Below, one piece after another: positions 29,314-41,194 of a stretch of 64,000 bases of DNA. Where the stretch lies: NCBI RefSeq assembly GCF_003790525.1, contig NZ_CP033635.1; one strand, given 5' to 3'. Made by a program: the position numbers and the translations under genes. Source of the stretch: Escherichia coli. Its GTDB lineage: Bacteria > Pseudomonadota > Gammaproteobacteria > Enterobacterales > Enterobacteriaceae. Position 1 is the first letter of the stretch. The number at the start of each line of letters is the position of its first letter. The notes under the pieces are model-generated. The model was given only the letters and a program-made list of their open reading frames with translations, was not told where the DNA came from and did not search any database.

Positions 29314-30612
29314 ATGGTTTGGCTGGAAATTATCGTTGTACTTGGCGCAATATTTTTTGGTATTCGTCAGGGAGGAATCGGCATTGGTTTATGCGGCGGT
29401 CTTGGCCTTGCGATCCTGACTCTGGGATTTGGTCTGCCTATGGGATCACCGCCAGTCGATGTGATCCTGATTATTATGACCGTAGTTGTGGCAGCTTCAG
29501 CCTTACAGGCGGCAGGTGGGATGGATTATCTGGTACGTTTAGCCAGTAATTTCATGCGACGTAACCCAAAATATATCAACATAATCGCACCGATTATCAC
29601 TTGGTTAATGACCATTATGGCCGGTACCGGGTTTATTGTTTTCTCCACACTGCCGGTAATTGCTGAAGTAGCAAAAGAGTCCGGTATCCGGCCTTCCCGC
29701 ACACTCGCTGGCTCAGTTGTCGCCTCACAGGTTGCAATTTCTGGCTCACCAATCAGTGCCGCAATGGCAGCTATGCTCACTATTATGGAGGTTAATGGCG
29801 TCAGTTTTATTCAGGTGATGTCGGTATGCCTTCCCACCTCTTTTGTCGCCGCGATGGTTGCTGCTTTTATCGCCTCCCGACAGGGGTGTGAATTACAAGA
29901 TGACGAAGTATATCTTGAACGTCTGCAAAAAGGTCTGGTGCAAAAATACGAGAATAATAACAGCATCAAACCTGGTGCAACGCTTTCCGTCGGATTATTC
30001 ATGCTGGCGACGATCGCCATTGTTATTCTTGCTGCATTCCCCCAATTGCGTCCGGGTTTTGATATCAGCAAACCGATGGAAACGCGCGATATTATTATTA
30101 TTTGCATGCTCTCTGCTGCCTGCCTGATGGTAATACTGTGTAAGATGTCTACTGATGACATTATTCTGACCTCCACATTTCGTGCTGGAATGAGTTCGCT
30201 GGCAGTGATTCTTGGTATTGTAACCTTAGGTACCACCTTTATTGATGCGCATTTAACTGAGATCAAAGATATCGCTGGTGATATTTTACAAACTTATCCG
30301 ATGCTTTTAGCATTAGTTCTTTTTTTTACCTGCGCTTTACTTTACTCACAGGGAGCGACTACGCCGTTAATTATTCCTCTGGCTGTAGCACTCAACATAC
30401 CAACCTGGGCAATTCTTGCATCTTATGTTGCCGTTACGGGAGTATTCGTGCTTCCAACGTATCCAACATCACTCGCCGCGATGGAATTTGATACTACCGG
30501 CACAACCCGTGTGGGCAATTATTTATTAAATCACCCATTTATGCTACCCGGGTTGGGTGGTGTTATTGCAGGAGTGACATTTGGGTTTGTGATTGCACCA
30601 ATGATGGTCTGA
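29314..30612 (+). CDS. Dcu-family anaerobic C4-dicarboxylate transporter (second, divergent paralog)
   Basis: 432 aa; same family blocks as 258-1592 (NPKYI, LPTYPTSLAA, EFDTTGTTRVGN) but a clearly different sequence. Confidence 0.85.
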   Translation: MVWLEIIVVLGAIFFGIRQGGIGIGLCGGLGLAILTLGFGLPMGSPPVDVILIIMTVVVAASALQAAGGMDYLVRLASNFMRRNPKYINIIAPIITWLMTIMAGTGFIVFSTLPVIAEVAKESGIRPSRTLAGSVVASQVAISGSPISAAMAAMLTIMEVNGVSFIQVMSVCLPTSFVAAMVAAFIASRQGCELQDDEVYLERLQKGLVQKYENNNSIKPGATLSVGLFMLATIAIVILAAFPQLRPGFDISKPMETRDIIIICMLSAACLMVILCKMSTDDIILTSTFRAGMSSLAVILGIVTLGTTFIDAHLTEIKDIAGDILQTYPMLLALVLFFTCALLYSQGATTPLIIPLAVALNIPTWAILASYVAVTGVFVLPTYPTSLAAMEFDTTGTTRVGNYLLNHPFMLPGLGGVIAGVTFGFVIAPMMV

Positions 30613-30834
30613 TAGAATCATAATTTTCATTCTTTATGGAAGTAGTTACAGAGTTACTATTTGATAATTAGTCAGGCAGTTAATCTGCATTCAGTTACTG
30701 ACTGTCAGAAGAATTCTGACAGATTGATATCACATGTTATTTCAATGATGTAAGAATTCAAATTCCGAGAGCATAGCTCCGGTTAAACAATTTGTTATTG
30801 TCACATTGTTTTCAAATAATGGAGTTAGAATATT

Positions 30835-32235
30835 ATGTCTCGTATTGAAAGCGATTTCCTTGGTGAGCGTGAAATTCCGGATGATTGCTATTATGGTGTT
30901 CAGACACTTCGTGGAAAAGATAATTTCCATATCACTGAAATGCCAATGAGTCAGGAGCCTTTCTTCATCATTGCCTTCGGTTATGTGAAAAAAGCAGCTG
31001 CGATGGCTAATAAGGAGTTAGGTACAATTCCTGCTGATGTTGCGGATGCTTTAATCTGGGCTTGCGACCAATTAATTGATGGTAAGTACCGGGAACAGTT
31101 TGTGACCGACTGGCTTCAGGGGGGAGCCGGAACGTCAACCAATATGAACTGCAATGAAGTGATTTGTAATCTTGCTGCAGAAAAACTTGGTAGCGTTAAA
31201 GGGGATTACAAACGCGTTTCGCCAAACGACCATGCTAATTTTGGTCAGTCCACCAATGATACATATCCGACAGCATTACATCTGGCATTGCTGCTGCGAA
31301 GCAATGTATTGCTTGAAGCTGTTGAACACCTCGTAGGAGCATTCTACAAAAAGGCTGACGAGTTCAGCACAGTGCTCAAGATGGGACGTACTCACCTGCA
31401 GGATGCAGTGCCAATGACTCTCGGCCAGGAGTTCCATGGCTGGGGTTTTACAATTAATGATGAAATTCGGGTCATCCGTAATGCACAGGAACACCTGCGG
31501 GTTGTAAACCTTGGTGCTACTGCGATTGGTACCTGTGTTACCGCTCACCCGGATTATCCCGCTTTAGCCGTGAAATATCTGGCCCAGATCACAGGCATTA
31601 ATTTCAGGAACAGTGAAGATCTCATCGCTGCCACAAGCGACTGTGGTGCATATGTTGCACTCAGTTCGGCCATGAAGAGCCTCTCTGTGAAGCTTACCAA
31701 GGTTTGTAATGACATTCGACTGCTTGCTTCAGGCCCCCGTTGCGGCCTGGCTGAAATTAACCTGCCTCAATTGCAACCGGGTTCTTCCATTATGCCTGGT
31801 AAGGTTAACCCCGTTATCCCGGAAGTAACAAACCAGTCTTGCTTCCTGGTTCAGGGGCTGGACACCACAGTGATGCTGGCGGCATCTGCTGGTCAGCTTG
31901 AGCTTAACGTTATGGAGCCGGTCATCACCTTTGCGCTGTTCACCTCACTCAAGGTGATGACGAATGCCTGTAACACACTCCGAACTAAATGCATTGATGG
32001 CATTACAGCTAATTCCGATCGAACTGCAGAGATGGTAATGCATTCCTGCGGTATTGTGACTCTCCTGAAGCCACATCTGGGATATAAGGTGTGTTCTGAA
32101 ATGGCGCACGAAGCATACCATACAGGCAAATCCCTCCATCAGATAGTGGTTGTCGAACGTAAGCTACTCACACAGGAAGAATGGGAGAAGACATTCAATC
32201 TGGATAATCTGATTGCTCCGAAGTTCGAACAATAA
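30835..32235 (+). CDS. aspartate ammonia-lyase / class II fumarase family protein (copy B)
   Basis: 466 aa, differs from copy A at about 2 residues (V14I, E28K); about 50 bp of upstream sequence is also shared. Confidence 0.88.
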   Translation: MSRIESDFLGEREIPDDCYYGVQTLRGKDNFHITEMPMSQEPFFIIAFGYVKKAAAMANKELGTIPADVADALIWACDQLIDGKYREQFVTDWLQGGAGTSTNMNCNEVICNLAAEKLGSVKGDYKRVSPNDHANFGQSTNDTYPTALHLALLLRSNVLLEAVEHLVGAFYKKADEFSTVLKMGRTHLQDAVPMTLGQEFHGWGFTINDEIRVIRNAQEHLRVVNLGATAIGTCVTAHPDYPALAVKYLAQITGINFRNSEDLIAATSDCGAYVALSSAMKSLSVKLTKVCNDIRLLASGPRCGLAEINLPQLQPGSSIMPGKVNPVIPEVTNQSCFLVQGLDTTVMLAASAGQLELNVMEPVITFALFTSLKVMTNACNTLRTKCIDGITANSDRTAEMVMHSCGIVTLLKPHLGYKVCSEMAHEAYHTGKSLHQIVVVERKLLTQEEWEKTFNLDNLIAPKFEQ

Positions 32236-32239
32236 AATG

Positions 32240-33175
<936 letters not shown>

Positions 33176-33179
33176 TGTT

Positions 33180-33670
33180 CTAAGGTGAGCATATTACCTA
33201 TGCTCAGGTGGCCAAATTCAGTATGCCAGAACCAGAACATCTTGTGGTCAGGCAGAGGAAGAGCAAACTGTTACTGGACTCACTGCATGCGTGGATGGTG
33301 GAGAAAAATGCCACGCTGTCCAAAAATCCAGACTGGGAGAATGGTTCAGCTGTGTACTGAATCAGTGGGGCGCACTCTGTTATTACAGTGTTGACGGTCA
33401 GGCGGAGGCAGACATAATGCCGCGGAAAAAGCCCTTTGTGCCATCTGTCTCGGAAATAAAAACTTTATGTTCTTCGACGGCGAGCGCAGTGCACTGTTGT
33501 ATGGGCTTATCGGCACTTGCCTTCTGAACGACATTGATCCGGAAGAGTATCTGCGCCATATCCTGAGCGTACTGCCGGAATAACCTTCCAACCGTATTGA
33601 TGAACTCCTGCCATGGAACGTAGTTCTCACCAATAAATAAGCATCAATATGATTCTCCATTAACGCTTAC
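33180..33670 (+). mobile_element. IS66-family transposase C-terminal fragment with IS66 right end
   Basis: translation NQWGALCYYSVDGQAEADN..LCLGRKNFMFFDGERSALLYGLIGTCLLNDIDPEEYLRHILSVLPEWPSNRIDELLPWN typical of IS66 TnpC C-terminus; a related end copy is at 59829-60010. Confidence 0.7.
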
Positions 33671-33778
33671 CTTTTCTCAGGCTATTTTTGATTTTTTTTG
33701 CTTTTCCCCGCCACTTTATGGTGATTATCACATCAATATACATCGACAGATATTAACGTAACTGAAGTGAGGTGAAGC

Positions 33779-34993
33779 ATGAAATTTGAACGCCATCATG
33801 AAATATTGAAACGACTCAGTAAATTCGGTTCTGTAAAAGTATCCGATCTGTCCAATAGCCTCAATGTAACGAAAGAAACTATTCGATCAGATCTTAATGA
33901 ACTTGCCAGACTTGGCTATCTGACTCGATGTCATGGCGGTGCTTTTATCGTCCTAGACTCGCTTGATACTATTGCGAAAAATGAAATCGCTTATGCGCTT
34001 GAAAATTATGATACAGCCCAGGGAATAAAAAAAGGCCACTCAACTATGAAAAGTCAAGTATGCGTTATTGGTTCGTTTAATGTTGATATCATCAGTTATT
34101 TGCCGAGGCTTCCCACTATCGGAGAATCGCTTCTGGCAAGTAATTTTATATTTTCACCGGGGGGAAAAGGTTGTAACCAAGCGCTGGCAGCAAGCTTTGC
34201 CGATACTGATGTTTATTTCATAACAAAAGTAGGTACAGATCACTTTAGTGATTATGCGATCAACTTTATGAATTCGTCTAAGATTTATAAAAGTATAATT
34301 TATCAAACGAAAGAAACGCAAACCGGAACTGCCACGATCCTTGTTAATGAAGGTACTGGCGATAATGTTATTGCGATCTATCCCGGTGCCAACATGACAA
34401 TGTCGTCCGATGAAATAACTATTCAGAAAGAAGCGATTATTAATTCTGATGTCATACTTCTGCAGCTCGAAACAAATTATACCGCTCTGCAACAAGCGAT
34501 CACATTGGCGCAAAAAAACAGTATCCCGGTCATTATTAACCCGGCACCCTATAATGATATCGTCAACGAACTTATTCAGGATGTTGATTATATCACCCCC
34601 AATGAAACAGAAGCTGGTTTACTGTCCGGCATAGACGTACACGATCTTGAATCAGCTAAACGAGCTGCAGAAGCTATCCACAATAAAGGGGTAAAAAACA
34701 CGGTTATCACGCTCGGTAGCAAGGGCTCACTCGCATTTGATGGCAAAAAATTCATTCATTCGCCAGCGTTTCCAGCGGTCGTTAAAAATACGGCAGGAGC
34801 CGGGGATGCTTTTAACGGCGCTCTGGCATCAGGACTTGCGAAAGGAAAATCACTGGAATCAGCACTGTGTTATGCCAGTGCCTTTGCATCCCTGGCGGTG
34901 GAGACAAGCAATGCTTCCGACATGCCTGAACATGAATCTGTGATACATCGAATTCAGAGTATACATTATCAGCAAACTATTTTTACGCATTAA
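33779..34993 (+). CDS. fusion protein: N-terminal DeoR-type HTH domain and C-terminal PfkB/ribokinase-family carbohydrate kinase
   Basis: first about 60 aa HEILKRLSKFGSVKVSDLSNSLNVTKETIRSDLNELARLGYLTR (DeoR HTH); remainder has ribokinase-family motifs (GGKG.NQA, NTAGAGDAFNGAL). Confidence 0.75.
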   Translation: MKFERHHEILKRLSKFGSVKVSDLSNSLNVTKETIRSDLNELARLGYLTRCHGGAFIVLDSLDTIAKNEIAYALENYDTAQGIKKGHSTMKSQVCVIGSFNVDIISYLPRLPTIGESLLASNFIFSPGGKGCNQALAASFADTDVYFITKVGTDHFSDYAINFMNSSKIYKSIIYQTKETQTGTATILVNEGTGDNVIAIYPGANMTMSSDEITIQKEAIINSDVILLQLETNYTALQQAITLAQKNSIPVIINPAPYNDIVNELIQDVDYITPNETEAGLLSGIDVHDLESAKRAAEAIHNKGVKNTVITLGSKGSLAFDGKKFIHSPAFPAVVKNTAGAGDAFNGALASGLAKGKSLESALCYASAFASLAVETSNASDMPEHESVIHRIQSIHYQQTIFTH

Positions 34994-35006
34994 GAAGGGA
35001 CAGAGA

Positions 35007-35765
35007 ATGAATAACACCAAAAAATCACTAAAGGTGCTCTTTATTGGAGAATCCTGGCATATTCATATGATTCATTCAAAAGGATATGACAGTTTTACCT
35101 CAAGTAAATATGAAGAAGGTGCGACCTGGTTACTCCAATGTCTGAAAAATAGTCAGGTAGATGTCACCTATATGCCGGCACATACGGTACAAATTGCCTT
35201 CCCTGAAGATGTGGCACAGTTAGAACAATATGATGCCATCGTTATTAGTGATATTGGTAGTAATACTTTCCTGCTACAAAATGATACTTTTTATCAGCTT
35301 CGCATAAAACCAAACGCTCTCGAACTGATTAAAGAATATGTGAATAACGGTGGTGGGTTATTGATGATTGGCGGCTATCTCTCATTCATGGGAATTGAAG
35401 CAAAAGCCAATTATAAAAATACAGTTCTGGCTGATGTGCTCCCGGTTACGATGTTAGATGGTGACGATCGTGTCGAAAAACCAGAGGGTGTTATTGCACA
35501 GCCATCACAACCTGACCATCCGGTTATTAAAGGGTTCTCTGAATATCCTTTTTTCCTAGGTTATAACCGGGCGATCGCTAAAGAAAATGCTGAGGTGGTA
35601 TTAACAATAAACAACGATCCATTACTGGTCTTTGGTAACTATCACAACGGGAAAATAGCCTGCTTTATGAGTGACTGTTCACCGCACTGGGGTACACAGC
35701 AGTTTATGTCCTGGCCGTTCTATACCGCGTTGTGGGTAAATATACTGACTCATATTGCAAGATAA
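35007..35765 (+). CDS. hypothetical protein, possibly class I glutamine amidotransferase-like fold
   Basis: 252-aa ORF directly after the kinase gene; assignment from weak pattern only (LLMIGGY, CFMSDCSPHW). Confidence 0.45.
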   Translation: MNNTKKSLKVLFIGESWHIHMIHSKGYDSFTSSKYEEGATWLLQCLKNSQVDVTYMPAHTVQIAFPEDVAQLEQYDAIVISDIGSNTFLLQNDTFYQLRIKPNALELIKEYVNNGGGLLMIGGYLSFMGIEAKANYKNTVLADVLPVTMLDGDDRVEKPEGVIAQPSQPDHPVIKGFSEYPFFLGYNRAIAKENAEVVLTINNDPLLVFGNYHNGKIACFMSDCSPHWGTQQFMSWPFYTALWVNILTHIAR

Positions 35766-35821
35766 TAATAATAATGGGGTAACACCAGTTACTCCATTTA
35801 CTATAATAGAAGGATTGATGT

Positions 35822-36787
35822 ATGAAAAAGAATAAGTACTCAACTCCCTTATGGATGCTTGCCACGATTCTTGCGGGTATGCTCTCCCCTATGCAATCAG
35901 CGGTGAATGGTCAATTAGGTCACTGGTTACAGGACGGTAATGCATGCGCAGTTATCTCCTTTGCCAGTGGTTTAGTCGTGATGTTTTTTATTATTATGGC
36001 GCGAAAAGAAACCCGGCAACAATTTGCGGCAATTCCTTCTCTGATTAAAAACCGAAAAGTTCCTCTCTGGAACTGGTTTGCCGGTCTCTGTGGAGCGATG
36101 GTGGTATTTTCTGAAGGCGCATCAGCCAGCGCACTCGGGGTCGCAACGTTTCAGACCGCACTGATCTCCGCGCTATTGCTGTCTGGTTTACTTTGCGATC
36201 GCTTTGGTATCGGTGTCGACGAGAAAAAATACTTTACCCCTTATCGCATCATCGGTGCATTATTTGCGGTTATTGCTACGATTTTTGTTGTGTCACCGCA
36301 GTGGCATTCTACCTCTTTCATTTTACTTGCCATTCTTCCGTTCTTAGCTGGTTTGCTTGCAGGATGGCAGCCCGCTGGAAATGCAAAAGTAGCTGAAGCT
36401 ACGGGATCCATGCTGGTTTCAATCACCTGGAATTTCATCGTTGGATTTTGTGTTTTAGGCACAGCGCTAGCTATTCGTGTCGCATTAGGGCACGTCACTG
36501 TTCAATTACCAGATGTCTGGTGGATGTATCTTGGCGGCCCGCTTGGACTAATGTCTATCGGTTTAATGGCCATTTTGGTCAGAGGTCTTGGGTTACTGAT
36601 GCTGGGGGTTGCTTCAACGGCGGGCCAGTTACTGGGATCAGTATTGATTGACGTATTAATTCCATCGCTGGGCAATACCGTTTATCTGGTCACGATCATC
36701 GGAACACTGTTTGCACTGGTCGGTGCAATTGTTACCACTATTCCGGAATACAGAGCCTCGAAAACAATGAAGAAAATGGAGGTATAA
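35822..36787 (+). CDS. DMT-superfamily membrane transporter (YdcZ/DUF606-like, duplicated 5-TM units)
   Basis: 321-aa hydrophobic ORF with internal repeat architecture. Confidence 0.6.
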   Translation: MKKNKYSTPLWMLATILAGMLSPMQSAVNGQLGHWLQDGNACAVISFASGLVVMFFIIMARKETRQQFAAIPSLIKNRKVPLWNWFAGLCGAMVVFSEGASASALGVATFQTALISALLLSGLLCDRFGIGVDEKKYFTPYRIIGALFAVIATIFVVSPQWHSTSFILLAILPFLAGLLAGWQPAGNAKVAEATGSMLVSITWNFIVGFCVLGTALAIRVALGHVTVQLPDVWWMYLGGPLGLMSIGLMAILVRGLGLLMLGVASTAGQLLGSVLIDVLIPSLGNTVYLVTIIGTLFALVGAIVTTIPEYRASKTMKKMEV

Positions 36788-36789
36788 TC

Positions 36790-37824
36790 ATGAAAGATTA
36801 TCTACAAACTGTGACGGGCCCCGTCGCCCGTGAAGATATGGGGCTAACACTTCCTCATGAACATCTGTTCAACGATCTTTCCTCTGTTGTGGATGCTCCT
36901 TGCTATCCTTTTTCACAACGGCTTGTTGATAAAAAAGTCACGGCAGAAATCCAGTGGGCATTAAAACACGATCCTTATTGCTGCGCTGATAATATGGACC
37001 GCAAACCTATTGAAGATGTGATCTTCGAAATTAATAACTTTATCTCGCTCGGTGGTCGCACCATTGTTGATGCCACAGGGTCTGAGTCTATCGGACGAGA
37101 TGCGCAGGCATTACGAGAAGTCGCATTAAAAACAGGTCTGAATATTGTTGCTTCCTCCGGTCCCTACCTGGAAAAATTTGAAAGCCAGAGAATTCATAAA
37201 ACGGTTGATGAACTAGCGACAACGATCGATAAAGAATTGAATCAAGGGATTGGCGATACGGATATTCGTGCCGGAATGATCGGTGAAATAGGTGTCTCAC
37301 CGACATTTACCGAAGCCGAGCATAACAGCTTGCGGGCTGCCTCGCTGGCACAGATTAACAATCCTCATGTGGCGATGAATATTCACATGCCGGGCTGGCT
37401 TCGTCGCGGTGATGAAGTACTCGACATTGTGTTAGGTGAAATGGGCGTCTCGCCAAATAAAGTCTCTCTCGCACACTCGGATCCGTCAGGAAAAGACGTG
37501 GCGTATCAGCGGAAAATGCTTGATAAAGGTGTCTGGCTGGAATTCGACATGATTGGCCTAGACATTACCTTCCCGAAAGAGGGAATAGCGCCAGGGGTGC
37601 AGGAGACTGCCGATGCCGTCGCTCATCTCATTGAGTTGGGATACGCCGATCAGCTTGTTCTCAGCCACGATGTCTTCCTTAAACAAATGTGGGCTAAAAA
37701 TGGCGGTAATGGCTGGGGATTTGTTCCAGATGTTTTTCTGGCCTATCTGGCGGAGCGCGGCGTCGATAAAACGATCCTCAAAAAACTCTGTATCGATAAT
37801 CCCGGACGATTATTGACCGCATAA
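36790..37824 (+). CDS. phosphotriesterase-homology protein (amidohydrolase superfamily; putative lactonase/esterase)
   Basis: 344 aa; N-terminal metal-binding motif TLPHEHL and later HxH/D blocks resembling the PTE/Php family. Confidence 0.75.
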   Translation: MKDYLQTVTGPVAREDMGLTLPHEHLFNDLSSVVDAPCYPFSQRLVDKKVTAEIQWALKHDPYCCADNMDRKPIEDVIFEINNFISLGGRTIVDATGSESIGRDAQALREVALKTGLNIVASSGPYLEKFESQRIHKTVDELATTIDKELNQGIGDTDIRAGMIGEIGVSPTFTEAEHNSLRAASLAQINNPHVAMNIHMPGWLRRGDEVLDIVLGEMGVSPNKVSLAHSDPSGKDVAYQRKMLDKGVWLEFDMIGLDITFPKEGIAPGVQETADAVAHLIELGYADQLVLSHDVFLKQMWAKNGGNGWGFVPDVFLAYLAERGVDKTILKKLCIDNPGRLLTA

Positions 37825-37833
37825 AACCATTAT

Positions 37834-37856
37834 CCCCCGGCACATTGCGCCGGGGG
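37834..37856. terminator. bidirectional hairpin (CCCCCGGCACATTGCGCCGGGGG) between the PTE-like gene and the ggt fragment
   Basis: perfect 9-bp GC-rich stem. Confidence 0.5.
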
Positions 37857-37859
37857 ATG

Positions 37860-38200
37860 TCAATTAATACCCCGCCGTTAAATCATCCACCAAGCGCGAG
37901 TCGGATGCGCCGTACAACTCACCATCCGACCCAACCATAATGCTTTGCGTGCTGCCCATCGCCTCATTCAGCGCCACTTTCTGACCTTTTGCTTCCAGCA
38001 GCTTGAGCGTATCCGGACTAAACCCTTTTCAACACGCAGCTCGTCCGGCAACCACTGATGGTGGAAACGAGGCGCATTGGTCGCTTCGGCAACATTCATT
38101 CCACAATTGATGCTGTTCACCACCATTTGCGGCACGGTAGTGATGATCCAGCTACCGGTAACAAAGTGAGTACATAAAGGCCATACTGTCACGAACAGTG
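37860..38200 (-). pseudogene. ggt: gamma-glutamyltranspeptidase 3' fragment (C-terminal about 110 codons only, frameshifted)
   Basis: minus-strand translation MNVAEATNAPRFHHQWLPDELRVEKG then FSPDTLKLLEAKGQKVALNEAMGSTQSIMVGSDGELYGASDSRLVDDLTAG matches the Ggt C-terminus as recalled; no upstream part. Confidence 0.75.
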
Positions 38201-38475
38201 CAAAAGTGGCTCTTCCTCAACCTAGGTGAAGATTTTCATGCCAGTGGACTCATTACCCTCCGCCTAAGTAGTTCAAGTCCGGCTCGACCATACATCTGGC
38301 GTATCAGCACCTTCAGGCGATTTACATGACCTTCGACAACACCAGTACTCCAGCGACTGCTGATTGCCTCACATATAGCCGCAGCATCAGCTTCCATCCC
38401 CGCAGCTACGCACCGAAGTTCTGCTGAGCCGCTTTCGTGGACCCGAGTGAACCAGCTGCTTAGCTGTGATTTATT

Positions 38476-39855
38476 TTAGGTTTTCAGAATACGGTAGAAC
38501 TCGAGTACCAGTTGCTGCGCTATTTTCAACTCCGGTTCTTTTTCACACATCAGACTAATAAATCGGAAAGCATAATTTTCTCCACCCCTGATTATTCTCC
38601 AGGGCATCAACCAGCGGCTTACCCGGGACACTGAAGGAAGTCTTGCGGCAGTAGTAACCGGTGGGATCCAGCCTTTATGCCATTTGGCAACAGCATCCCT
38701 GACGATGGTTTCACTGCCTGTAACCCCCCTGGCCACCATTTCCCGCCATATCCGGCCGGAGTTATAATTACCACATTCTCGTTGCTCTTTTAACCACTCC
38801 CTCCATGGGTCCAGAAGCCCTCGCTTTGGAGGCCTGGTTGACATTTCAGGGAATGTTCCTGAACCCACCCAGCGACTGACTGTCACTCGCGACAGGCCTG
38901 TAATACGGGATATTTCCCTGAAACTACATCCCTTGTTATGCAGGGCCATAACCTCTGTCCAACGCTGATGCCGTTTTTTGCGGATGTGCTGTTTAAGGCG
39001 TTCCAGACGACGGAGCGATGCTACAGGCACAGATATTTCTGGCTCAGGTGATTTCTTCAGTGATAACTCTCTGACAACAAGACGTATCAGAGGCATATGT
39101 CTGTACATCATTCGTTCAGGCTCATCACCAATATTTTTTAGCAGGTGCCATCGATCGGCCACCTGTCTGGCCTGAGGTGCACCTTCACGTGCTGCTGTCG
39201 CATAGACTCCACTGCGATCACGCGAGACAACCTGTATTTCCGGATATTTTCTGAACCAGGTCGCCAGCGTACGCTGATCACGGCCGGGAAGCAGGACGAG
39301 GGGACGGTGAGTATCAGGATTGACTATTAACATACCGCAGCAGTGGCCCCGATGCCACGCCCACTCATCAATACCGACATGAGGCGCGCCTGACTGTTTC
39401 GTCTCCGGGGTATTGATAAGCCTGCGAAGAAGAGTATCAGCACTGCAACGGAGACCCACTGCCGTTGCAGCCCGTTTTCCAGCCTCACCTCCAGCTATTA
39501 ATCCCAGTTGACATTGTTAATTTTGTAACGCCTGTGAAGACTGCTGGTGTGAACTGGCGAAGGGAGCAAGCGACTCGGCAAAAATTTTACGTGAACAAGC
39601 CGGGTTACGGCAGTACCAGTGGCGGACGGAAAATACAAGCCATAGCGTCTGCCCTGAGCAGGGTAGATGCTGTATCCGGCGCCGACGACAACTATGAACA
39701 GAGTCGCTACGCTTAAAGCATTCAGGACATTGTGCTGTTTTGCGTTTTCCGTGGAGATGGAGGGTTATACCGTCAGAGCTAATAATTTGTCGACTGCATC
39801 GCCATCCGCAAGGTAACTGTAGAAGTGTCTTAAGAGAGTGCATTGCGTTGCCCAT
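38476..39855 (-). pseudogene. transposase with ISL3-like zinc-finger and DDE signatures, frameshifted (39517-39855 N-terminal part; 38476-39459 C-terminal part)
   Basis: N-terminal CPECF..YCRNPACSRKIFAE zinc ribbon; GIDEWAWHRGH..VVSRDRSGVYA..QVADRWHLLKN DDE region; domain order atypical, family assignment tentative. Confidence 0.5.
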
Positions 39856-40138
39856 AACTTAAAACAGCTTAGATCCTTGTTCGCCAGAAAGTTTCATCCA
39901 TTTTCTTCCACCCAGGTTGCGGAAGAACCACTTTTCATCCGTCGTTGACAGATGTGAAGTATGCGGGAGAAAAAGTGAATATCTAACTGTAATAACTCAG
40001 ACCGGTACGAGTACTCGGGACGTCTACAATCATTCAGGGCAAAGTGCTAAAATTTCTCTATCCCGGGATGCCCCTACCAACGCAGCACTCCCGGAGATAT
40101 CATTACAGCTCTGCAACTGATTTCCGCGACTGAACCGC

Positions 40139-40546
40139 TCAGTTCCTATCCTTCCAGTTGCCCTCCTGCCCCCCCTCCCTGCTGTATACCCCGGTACCAC
40201 AACTCGGGCAGCACTTTTCCCCCTCATAATTTTCGTCACACATCACACAAAACCACTTTCTCACCTTCACCGTATAATCCGGAACCGTCATACCCTGCAG
40301 ATGCAAACGACGGGCCTCTTTCTCTGCCGGGTCAAGCCAGGTGCATCGCAGCAGGATTTTCTCAGCGACAGTCATCTGGTCATGTTCAAACCACGGTGGT
40401 TGTCCGTCATTGCCCCGCTGAAGTGTTAACGGGCATCCACAGGACACACAGCACAAAACGTCCTGGCGGTTGTGCTTCGCTGCTTCTTTCGCCGTAACAA
40501 AATGGCCTTTGCTGTCATTCGCCATATAACAGTTCAGAATTCGCAT
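40139..40546 (-). CDS. zinc-ribbon hypothetical protein (paralog 2; motifs CxxC..PWFEH..CxxC)
   Basis: paralogous to the adjacent upstream ORF; two Cys pairs flanking a conserved WFEH motif; start taken at MRILN. Confidence 0.5.
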   Translation of the reverse strand: MRILNCYMANDSKGHFVTAKEAAKHNRQDVLCCVSCGCPLTLQRGNDGQPPWFEHDQMTVAEKILLRCTWLDPAEKEARRLHLQGMTVPDYTVKVRKWFCVMCDENYEGEKCCPSCGTGVYSREGGQEGNWKDRN

Positions 40547-40941
40547 ATTTCCTCCTGAGTTGTCCGGGGAATACTGAATCCTCCGGTCTGGCAGTGTGTG
40601 CAGTACCGCTCCCCATAATAATCGTGGTGACATTGTCTGCAGTGCCAGCTGGCTTTACGCACCACGGGTAAGGCATCCGGTACGAATTGCTGCAGACGTT
40701 TAATCAACTGTATTTCTCTGCGCTCCGGCCTGACATAAGGGCACTGTTGACCGTGCTCTGTCAGCCTGTCGTCAGTGTGTTCAAACCAGGGAAGTTCAGT
40801 GTCGTATTGCGGATGGTATCTGAGTGCACTGCCACACAAGTGGCAGGTGTAGTTAGCATAAGGTGCGGCCTGTGCAGTACGGGCGCCCGTCAGACGTCCG
40901 TTGCCATCAAGAGCGATAAAGGATTTTGCGTACATAGTCAT
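40534..40941 (-). CDS. zinc-ribbon hypothetical protein (paralog 1; motifs CxxC..PWFEH..CxxC)
   Basis: 135 aa; CHLCG..PWFEHTDD..CRQCHHDYYGERYCTHCQ. Confidence 0.5.
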   Translation of the reverse strand: MTMYAKSFIALDGNGRLTGARTAQAAPYANYTCHLCGSALRYHPQYDTELPWFEHTDDRLTEHGQQCPYVRPERREIQLIKRLQQFVPDALPVVRKASWHCRQCHHDYYGERYCTHCQTGGFSIPRTTQEEICEF

Positions 40942-41194
40942 ATTCCTCAGCCGCCAGACGACACGCAGGCAACAGCCGTCCCGGTACGGGCAGCGTGGTC
41001 AGGGTGTGAATGGCGGTTCAGTTAAAATCTGGACTGGAGTTTGGGTAAAGCAGGCTGGTTGCTGTTACAGCACTGTGGTTGTCACACAATGGAACACTGA
41101 CGTAAAAAACAGTCAGTGGGCGAGTGGATACATCGTTGCCGCCAGACAACAACCCATACTTTTGGTTTGCCGGGTATTGGCGCGCCAGTCGTGC

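Follow-up and report, generated by a model that had tools for sequence, protein, structure and literature searches.

The 64-kb window analyzed here (the whole stretch of 64,000 nucleotides [nt] on contig NZ_CP033635.1) is Escherichia coli chromosome, and positions 33600 to 37900 were 100% identical to several complete genomes, including that of SMS-3-5. The subject of this report is a block of four open reading frames (ORFs), all on the plus strand and separated by gaps of 13, 56, and 2 nt, and in particular the first of them (gene 1), in which a DeoR-type winged helix-turn-helix (HTH) domain is joined to a ribokinase-type kinase domain (Table 1). A preliminary description made from the sequence had proposed a co-directional four-gene block headed by such a fusion, with the kinase in the place of the usual DeoR sensor domain. 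Each of these elements was recovered. Four ORFs were found, Pfam placed HTH_DeoR and PfkB in a single 404-amino-acid ORF, and the C-terminal sensor/oligomerization domain of DeoR proteins (PF00455) was not matched by Pfam in gene 1, where that region is taken by PfkB. Domain search and structure prediction (AlphaFold2) of the fusion agreed on a winged HTH followed by a ribokinase fold. The GC-rich hairpin beyond gene 4 is likely a terminator.

The Salmonella gene STM3547 was published in June 2026 as encoding RikA, an active ribose kinase (McCormick, Jabbar & Escalante-Semerena, Mol Microbiol; PMC13432705). RikA supports growth on ribose, and its ATP-dependent D-ribose kinase activity was measured in vitro, with a Km of 2 mM and a kcat/Km ~50 to 100 times below that of RbsK; activity requires Asp343 and is lost in the D343A variant, and deoxyribose, xylose, and xylulose are poor substrates (PMC13432705). 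The authors noted a predicted DeoR domain in RikA, which PROSITE also predicts, and reported that STM3548-3550 lie downstream and that the cluster is conserved in Citrobacter, Escherichia, Budvicia, and Proteus (PMC13432705).

Gene 1 was 80% identical in amino acid sequence to its counterpart in the S. enterica cluster over 100% of its length and 82% identical to that of S. bongori, and the HTH, Met90, and Asp343 were common to gene 1 and STM3547 in the alignment. The same four-gene order and ggt neighbor were found in E. coli and Salmonella by gene order comparison, and the DNA of E. coli and S. enterica was colinear from 33684 to 38147, with the 3' end of ggt included (blastn). The block is thus orthologous to STM3547-STM3550, and the novelty implied in the preliminary description did not hold, because the published study had already described this locus, noted the DeoR domain, and listed Escherichia among the genera in which the cluster is conserved (PMC13432705). 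A literature search for DeoR HTH-ribokinase fusions matched no report. The locus is already known, so its novelty is low, and the point that remains is a conflict over whether the HTH is made: the published study favors a start at Met90 (PMC13432705), whereas the comparative data presented below point to an HTH that is translated and constrained. The interpretation favored here, held with moderate confidence, is that the E. coli block is a copy of the Salmonella rikA (STM3547)-STM3550 operon and forms a self-contained, horizontally mobile four-gene salvage module for a ribose-conjugate pathway, the first gene of which would encode both an HTH-kinase autorepressor and a short kinase isoform.

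Table 1. Features of the four-gene block and its flanks (positions are those of the window; HTH, helix-turn-helix; SD, Shine-Dalgarno; IS, insertion sequence)
Feature	Position	Strand	Basis
IS3-family (IS911-like) remnant, ~32467-33228, then IS66-family transposase remnant, ~33233-33583; left boundary	32467..33583	no strand	Near-identical SMS-3-5 RefSeq annotation; 81-85% identity to IS3/IS66 transposases
T-rich box TTTTGATTTTTTTTGCTTT, G residues at a distance of 10 bp; candidate operator, or else an UP-like promoter element	33686..33704	+	5' edge of conserved module
TTTATG and palindrome GTGATTATCAC (33721-33731), containing ATCACA (33727-33732); candidate operator half-site and promoter spacer	33715..33732	+	Conservation
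SD sequence GAGGTGA for Met1 of the long product	33769..33775	+	Conserved; duplex energy
Gene 1, rikA ortholog, 404 amino acids, DeoR-type winged HTH and ribokinase-type PfkB kinase	33779..34993	+	Pfam; NCBIfam; ~80% identity to STM3547/RikA
DeoR-type winged HTH domain, residues 2-57	33782..33949	+	Pfam HTH_DeoR PF08220 (residues 5-56), E = 4.9e-15; AlphaFold2
Variable linker, residues 58-89	33950..34045	+	Low-confidence helix 64-78; disordered 77-89
Weak SD-like AAAGG and Met90 ATG (34046-34048), candidate internal start	34032..34048	+	Conservation; duplex energy
Ribokinase-type PfkB kinase domain, residues 92-382, catalytic Asp343	34052..34924	+	Pfam PfkB, E = 5.3e-65
Gene 2, PF07090 "GATase1-like" cytoplasmic protein, ortholog of STM3548	35007..35765	+	Pfam, E = 2e-112; PDB 2GK3
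Gene 3, DMT-superfamily transporter with 10 transmembrane segments, two YdcZ halves	35822..36787	+	Pfam DMT_YdcZ (PF04657), two matches
Gene 4, phosphotriesterase (PTE)-family binuclear-metal hydrolase, ortholog of Proteus mirabilis Pmi1525	36790..37824	+	Pfam PTE, E = 1.8e-46; PDB 3RHG/4QSF
GC-rich hairpin in the gap separating gene 4 from the convergent ggt remnant	37832..37858	no strand	12-bp stem, 9 GC pairs
ggt 3' fragment, 293 bp	37864..38156	-	RefSeq pseudogene; colinear with Salmonella; ISL3 pseudogene beyond

Kinase domain and products of gene 1

The closest sequence match of gene 1 in the PDB was E. coli RbsK (1GQT; E = 2e-52), and the top fold match by Foldseek was the RbsK entry 1RK2 (template modeling [TM] score of 0.91 normalized to the target). 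The RbsK ribose ligands N14, D16, G42, K43, N46, E143, and D255 corresponded to N101, D103, G129, K130, N133, E231, and D343 of gene 1. The GAGD motif was invariant in 97 full-length homologs, a set that reached down to 45% identity and was used both for residue conservation and for the AlphaFold2 alignment. The score against TIGR02152, the NCBIfam ribokinase equivalog, was a narrow miss (285.4 bits versus a cutoff of 299.65). With GAGD invariant throughout and the full set of RbsK ribose ligands retained, the fusions are taken to be live kinases rather than degenerate sensors. Gene 1 encodes a catalytically competent ribokinase-type kinase, with activity measured on the Salmonella ortholog. 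Compared to RbsK (PDB 1RKD and 1GQT), it has the same fold (TM score of 0.9), ribose ligands, catalytic Asp, and signature motifs; RbsK differs in being free of a DNA-binding domain, in being controlled by a separate LacI-type regulator (RbsR), and in its greater efficiency on ribose.

No solved structure with an HTH-plus-PfkB architecture was matched in the Foldseek search of the PDB. The fused architecture was kept in Salmonella, Klebsiella, Citrobacter, Budvicia, Providencia, Pectobacterium, Rahnella, Gilliamella, and others, and the identical 404-amino-acid protein stands for 2277 member sequences. A merger of two genes by sequencing error, a possibility raised in the preliminary description, was ruled out by these observations.

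Codon alignments of the E. coli, S. enterica, S. bongori, Klebsiella, Citrobacter, Budvicia, and Providencia orthologs were used to examine the N-terminal domain. Across codons 1 to 57, the proportion of nonsynonymous differences (pN) was 0.09 to 0.14, compared to a proportion of synonymous differences (pS) of 0.43 to 0.71, and the ratio of nonsynonymous to synonymous divergence (dN/dS) was 0.07 to 0.2 in six close pairs. Nonsynonymous divergence of the HTH codons was equally low as that of the kinase domain. Purifying selection on codons 1 to 57 is expected only with translation, which argues that the HTH frame is translated. Eleven HTH residues (R5, V21, V30, E33, T34, R36, D38, L39, R50, G53, and G54) were invariant in the 97 homologs. 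A Shine-Dalgarno (SD) sequence, GTGAGGTGA or GTGAGGTAA, was located 5 to 6 nt 5' of Met1 in six of the seven orthologs, with TGAGGTAA located 7 nt 5' of the start in Providencia, and the anti-SD duplex at Met1 (-7 to -9.5 kcal/mol) was within the top 0 to 3% of positions in each gene. Neither frameshifted nor HTH-less orthologs were found among full-length genomic copies.

In the AlphaFold2 model, helices at residues 2 to 16, 21 to 28, and 32 to 44 and a wing at residues 49 to 56 form a canonical winged HTH, and a confident ribokinase fold begins at residue 93. The linker had predicted local distance difference test (pLDDT) values of <50 at residues 77 to 89 and column entropies of 2.4 to 3.6 bits at residues 76 to 89. 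The match to HTH_DeoR answers a second doubt raised in the preliminary description, namely, that no functional HTH might be seen on profile search, and the best NCBIfam model for the domain was AgaR (E = 2.7e-11). The N-terminal winged HTH is of the same Pfam family as those of the DeoR, GlpR, AgaR, and FucR repressors; repressors of the DeoR family carry the PF00455 sensor, whereas gene 1 carries a kinase, which is active in the Salmonella ortholog. Judging from these comparisons, the HTH is probably translated from Met1 and kept by selection. Values of pS were lower in the first 89 codons (33779-34045) than in the kinase region (0.44 to 0.55 versus 0.80 for E. coli compared to S. enterica), with a similar trend in other pairs, which could reflect an extra nucleotide constraint (an internal promoter or the Met90 initiation region) or small-sample noise.

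Position 90, conserved among hypervariable linker columns, was occupied by Met in 81 of the 97 homologs, by Val in 10, and by Ala in 3 (entropy, 0.89 bits), and codon 90 of the Providencia gene is GTG. An ATG or GTG at codon 90 together with an SD-like purine run 6 to 11 nt upstream was present in 12 of 13 fusion genes (-3.2 to -7.2 kcal/mol; percentiles 2 to 21), with energies of -3.2 to -4.4 kcal/mol in E. coli, Salmonella, and Klebsiella. Many stand-alone ribokinases align their own residue 1 to residue 90 of gene 1 (search of 1.84 billion representatives). In Salmonella, C-terminally tagged RikA expressed from native translation signals was recovered only as a ~35-kDa product, which was seen with and without arabinose, and RikA(90-404) complemented fully in a triple kinase deletion (PMC13432705). 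The authors concluded that RikA appears to start at Met90, without the HTH, and did not exclude a longer isoform (PMC13432705).

These results and the sequence comparisons are most simply, and plausibly, reconciled if gene 1 yields two products, an HTH-kinase of full length and a shorter kinase. A second, kinase-only product from the conserved Met90 (or from cleavage in the linker) would supply most of the soluble enzyme and would thereby explain the 35-kDa species in Salmonella. Two points speak against a dedicated internal start. The fusion encoded by orf408 of Salmonella pathogenicity island 2 (SPI-2) has Ala at position 90, so that such a start is not universal, and the Met, Val, or Ala at this position could have a hydrophobic structural role. 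The alternative that only the full-length protein is made, with the 35-kDa kinase arising by proteolysis in the disordered linker and Met90 kept for structural reasons, draws on the same residue, on the predicted disorder, on the Ala of some homologs, and on the weakness of the SD sequence before Met90. It is considered unlikely, if the most durable of the competing explanations, because Met or Val occupies position 90 in 94% of the homologs, compared to near-random neighboring linker columns, because the Val codon that was checked is GTG, and because 12 of 13 genes had SD-like energies under the 21st percentile. The two-product reading is retained in what follows.

Related operons and the putative pathway

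The fusion family was found mainly in Gammaproteobacteria (Enterobacterales, Orbales, Vibrio nigripulchritudo, and Aeromonas jandaei), and one fusion cluster carries the annotation Martelella alba, which its record places in the alphaproteobacteria; of the top 150 clusters at 50% identity, ~22 were full-length fusions. Five types of fusion-led operon were distinguished by the genes that accompany the fusion. The first type, that of the present block, encodes a PF07090 protein, a DMT transporter, and a PTE hydrolase, and the second, SPI-2 orf408-orf245-orf32-orf48 (STM1382-STM1379), encodes a PF07090 protein, an alpha/beta hydrolase, and an APC permease. The third type contains an IU-nucleoside hydrolase, NupC, an MFS transporter, and an M20 peptidase; the fourth contains an ABC transporter and an ADP-ribosylglycohydrolase; and the fifth, from Rahnella, contains DHDPS-like, DUF386, and MFS proteins.

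Compared to the present block, the SPI-2 operon has an HTH_DeoR-PfkB fusion that is 47% identical and a PF07090 protein (PDB 3SOZ) that is 65% identical, followed by a hydrolase and then a transporter in the same order. It differs in having an alpha/beta hydrolase instead of a PTE protein and an APC instead of a DMT transporter, each without detectable homology to its counterpart, and in being without Met90 and with a degenerate upstream motif. The exchange of hydrolase and transporter is a case of non-orthologous displacement. The Neobacillus arrangement consists of a LacI regulator and a PfkB kinase, not fused, with PF07090, M20, and an RbsBAC-like transporter after them. A Salmonella HTH-ribokinase paralog with 59% identity (locus L092, 7001-13123) heads an operon for a nucleoside hydrolase, NupC, an MFS transporter, and an M20 peptidase in a plasmid-like context (CcdAB, KfrA, and a resolvase).

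Gene 2, described earlier as a protein of unknown function, can be placed more precisely in PF07090, its sole family match, with a solved ortholog, STM3548 (PDB 2GK3; E = 1e-145); the paralog STM1381 (3SOZ) also matched. Among 112 cluster representatives, including Bacillaceae, 72 of the 252 residues were at least 98% invariant, among them E15, H20, H23, D28, H59, D82, D154, R155, E157, D223, C224, and H227. The presumed nucleophile elbow, GGY (residues 122 to 124), is without Cys, and C224 and H227 lie elsewhere, as read from the sequence; gene 2 is therefore unlikely to encode a classical glutamine amidotransferase. The PF07090 protein was unusually conserved for an orphan, with 60 to 66% identity between Enterobacterales and Bacillaceae/Paenibacillus (35007-35765 in the window; L095, 8001-8738; L096, 8001-8735), and its gene directly followed the PfkB kinase gene in every context examined that had a kinase nearby.

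The two DMT_YdcZ halves of gene 3 (PF04657 at residues 10 to 154 and 169 to 303) bear out its earlier identification as a DMT transporter; the gene was kept in all orthologous modules, and its product presumably imports the substrate. Gene 4 had been called a PTE-family lactonase. The family assignment stood (Pfam), and the lactonase assignment was unsupported, with a score of 42.4 bits against NF045706, the phospho-furanose lactonase equivalog, compared to a cutoff of 630. Gene 4 aligned end to end with Pmi1525 of Proteus mirabilis (3RHG and 4QSF; E = 3e-174), the structures of which were deposited as those of an amidohydrolase, and the metal-ligand motifs LPHEHL, GEIG, NIHMPG, LAHSD, and LSHDVF were identical between gene 4 and 3RHG. 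Pmi1525 is said to be a carboxylate and methylphosphonate esterase and not a lactonase, and promiscuous esterase activities have reportedly been described for both Pmi1525 and Rsp3690 (3K2G). A secondary source cites Pmi1525 as a metal-stimulated esterase (PMC5341072).

Two of the fusion-led operon types clearly release free ribose, by means of a nucleoside hydrolase in one and an ADP-ribosylglycohydrolase in the other, and proteins with esterase-type folds occupy the hydrolase position of the first two types; import and hydrolysis of a ribose-containing ester or amide are favored for the present block on these grounds. The DMT transporter would import such a compound, the PTE-type hydrolase and the PF07090 protein would release ribose from it, and the kinase would trap the released ribose as ribose 5-phosphate. 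If this analogy holds, the activity of RikA as a ribose kinase would be physiological and not the moonlighting that its authors suggested (PMC13432705). Two considerations count against this pathway: the low kcat/Km of RikA relative to RbsK means that ribose may not be the true substrate, and the Rahnella-type operon is not obviously ribose related.

Some members of the PTE family (COG1735) are phosphorylated sugar lactonases (Lmo2620 and MS53_0025). The pathway offered in the preliminary description, in which the kinase acts on a sugar lactone (or on a sugar that is later oxidized), the PTE protein is a phospho-sugar lactonase, and ribose phosphorylation is a side activity, would accommodate the low efficiency of RikA on ribose, the suggestion of moonlighting, and the weak match of gene 4 to the phospho-furanose lactonase model. 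That match was far below its cutoff, the close ortholog Pmi1525 is cited for esterase activity (PMC5341072), an unrelated alpha/beta hydrolase takes the place of the PTE protein in the SPI-2 paralog, free ribose is the product of enzymes encoded in other operons with a fusion at the head, and gene 1 retains every RbsK ribose ligand, so that the lactone pathway is viewed as improbable.

Upstream region and candidate regulation

Orthologous loci were collected by exact-protein look-ups. In seven orthologous upstream regions, the sequences were unalignable up to TTTTGnTTTTTTTTGsTTT, which was followed by TTTAYG and an invariant ATCACA. This T-rich box was invariant in all seven, although the flanking genes differ, and blastn homology to four other genera (among them Salmonella, Klebsiella, and Citrobacter) started at 33684 to 33686, right at the box. 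It occurred once in the 64-kb window, and at least one match within three mismatches was obtained in 24 of 100 shuffles. Related elements were located before more distant fusions. TTTTGATTTTTTTTG, with the same 26-nt spacing to ATCACA, precedes the 59%-identical Salmonella paralog that heads the nucleoside hydrolase operon, and TTTTTGTTTAC..GTTT followed by ATCACT precedes the 45 to 48% identical Rahnella and Acerihabitans fusions; in the plasmid-borne paralog, Rahnella, and Acerihabitans, ATCAC lies 21 to 27 nt after the T-rich box. In the Providencia locus (L091, 5874-5923), two copies of the box, TTTTGGTTTTTTTTGTTTT and TTTTGCTTTTTTTTGCTTT, were found 31 bp apart, compared to a single copy in the other genera.

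The module was found in a different neighborhood in each of six genera: by ggt in both Salmonella species and in unrelated surroundings in Klebsiella, Citrobacter, Budvicia, and Providencia. It was accompanied by no regulator gene across the genera examined, and the HTH-kinase is the only regulator candidate of the module. An Rfam scan of 33300 to 38300 at E of ≤1 returned no RNA family, which argues against a known riboswitch or leader as the regulator. What these operons have in common is the fusion protein, and the explanation that requires least is therefore that the fusion regulates its own operon through the HTH. The long protein is most likely the operon's repressor, to judge from its domains and from the conserved upstream DNA, and it would act at the T-rich box and ATCACA element 47 to 93 bp upstream, with the kinase domain standing where DeoR proteins usually have a sensor domain.

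Ribokinases dimerize via a substrate-closing lid. Sugar binding could for that reason re-orient the two HTHs of a dimer, and this re-orientation would release the DNA. AgaR operators are likewise T-rich repeats, a resemblance that is offered as a lead only. The earlier proposal of a kinase that acts as its own regulator is kept in conditional form: selection on the HTH, the SD sequence at Met1, and the upstream motif point to it, and the Salmonella ortholog was recovered only as the ~35-kDa form without the HTH (PMC13432705).

Several results are unfavorable to a repressor bound at this element. Degenerate forms of the upstream motif were seen with the ADP-ribosylglycohydrolase type and ahead of SPI-2 orf408, no convincing -35 or -10 hexamers could be assigned in the conserved upstream region, and the T-rich box could be an UP-like promoter element instead of an operator. 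In a simple promoter scan, sites were no more frequent than in shuffles. A 10/12 sigma-70-like match (GTAACA-17-TATAAT; 35779-35807) is located in the 56-nt gap before the transporter gene and was partly kept in Salmonella but not in other genera, and BioCyc reportedly predicts two transcription units at this locus. A second internal promoter or operator in the gap between genes 2 and 3 was considered and was unsupported, as only the SD sequence is conserved there across genera.

The explanation favored in the published study, that the HTH-coding region is vestigial, that the product starts at Met90 and serves as a third ribose kinase, and that the operon is regulated otherwise or not at all, is supported by the ~35-kDa product from native signals, by complementation with RikA(90-404), and by the alignment of Met90 with residue 1 of stand-alone ribokinases, the first two of which also weigh against a repressor, but it is judged very unlikely given the dN/dS values, the invariant HTH residues, the strong and conserved SD sequence at Met1, the predicted winged HTH, and the lack of frameshifted or HTH-less full-length copies. 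Full-length H6-RikA was insoluble (PMC13432705), so that the long form could have been lost with the pellet rather than purified from the soluble fraction, and the N terminus of the 35-kDa band was not determined.

The autorepressor reading has parallels in known systems. The ROK repressors (NagC, Mlc, and XylR) follow an analogous logic, with an N-terminal winged HTH and a sugar-sensing kinase fold; the ROK kinase fold, ASKHA, is unrelated to PfkB, and ROK catalysis is generally lost, whereas the GAGD motif of gene 1 is invariant and the ortholog is active. In the archaeal RbkR (riboflavin kinase and winged HTH; PMC5397151), BirA, and NadR, an active kinase or ligase joined to an HTH controls its own pathway; these proteins have other enzyme folds and pathways, and regulation has been demonstrated for them and only inferred for gene 1.

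A more specific proposal is put forward tentatively. One gene may give rise to a scarce full-length ribokinase-repressor, bound at a T-rich/ATCACA operator and released when its own substrate closes the lid, and to an abundant kinase isoform from Met90; this device may have been reused as an exchangeable head, which senses ribose and then phosphorylates it, of at least five different salvage operons of Gammaproteobacteria, with the highly conserved PF07090 protein of the present operon as a new ribose-conjugate hydrolase.

Genomic context and significance of the block

The preliminary description had placed IS66 and IS3 (insertion sequence) remnants to the left of the block and a ggt fragment to its right and had taken them as signs of horizontal acquisition. 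Both flanks were confirmed by RefSeq annotation and transposase matches, and acquisition by transfer is supported by the IS remnants together with a co-transferred ggt fragment. The fragment shared 92.5% identity with the native ggt of E. coli and only 86% with that of S. bongori, and the operon genes were ~76 to 77% identical to those of Salmonella at the DNA level. In Salmonella, the PTE gene is convergent to a full-length ggt, for which reason the fragment is interpreted as part of a co-transferred ancestral neighborhood. Given the 92.5% versus 86% identities, the likely donor was a close relative in or near Escherichia whose ggt locus held the cluster. The block was present in 1908 of 5426 complete E. 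coli genomes (~35%) at a coverage of at least 80%, and the present left flank was found in only 453. Relative to the Salmonella cluster, the E. coli copy thus differs in lying on an IS-bounded island, in retaining only a fragment of ggt, and in being confined to this share of genomes.

Positions 29314 to 32235, to the left of the IS remnants, encode a DcuA-like C4-dicarboxylate transporter and a complete aspartate ammonia-lyase paralog, and an aspartate/glutamate racemase-family gene is located farther left. The aspartate ammonia-lyase gene of SMS-3-5 is interrupted by an IS3 element, and the window is without that element. To the right, positions 38476 to 41000 contain an ISL3-family transposase pseudogene, two zinc-ribbon proteins, and an "inovirus Gp2 family" gene. 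The operon appears to be embedded in a mosaic island, and the segment from 38476 to 41000 resembles prophage or island debris.

The operon is carried by about one-third of E. coli genomes and by most Salmonella. Production of the HTH is doubted in the published study, and sequence evolution points to an HTH that is made and constrained, a disagreement that is testable. Should the long form act as a repressor, a PfkB kinase that is catalytically active would double as the sensor of a transcription factor, and gene 1 would be a bacterial counterpart of the archaeal RbkR and a catalytically live analogue of the ROK repressors. Gene 1 may also exemplify two functional isoforms from one bacterial gene. 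The same HTH-kinase device heads SPI-2 orf408-orf48, which has been unexplained since SPI-2 was sequenced, and the operon ties the structural genomics orphans 2GK3 and 3SOZ and Pmi1525 to what would be a ribose-related pathway.

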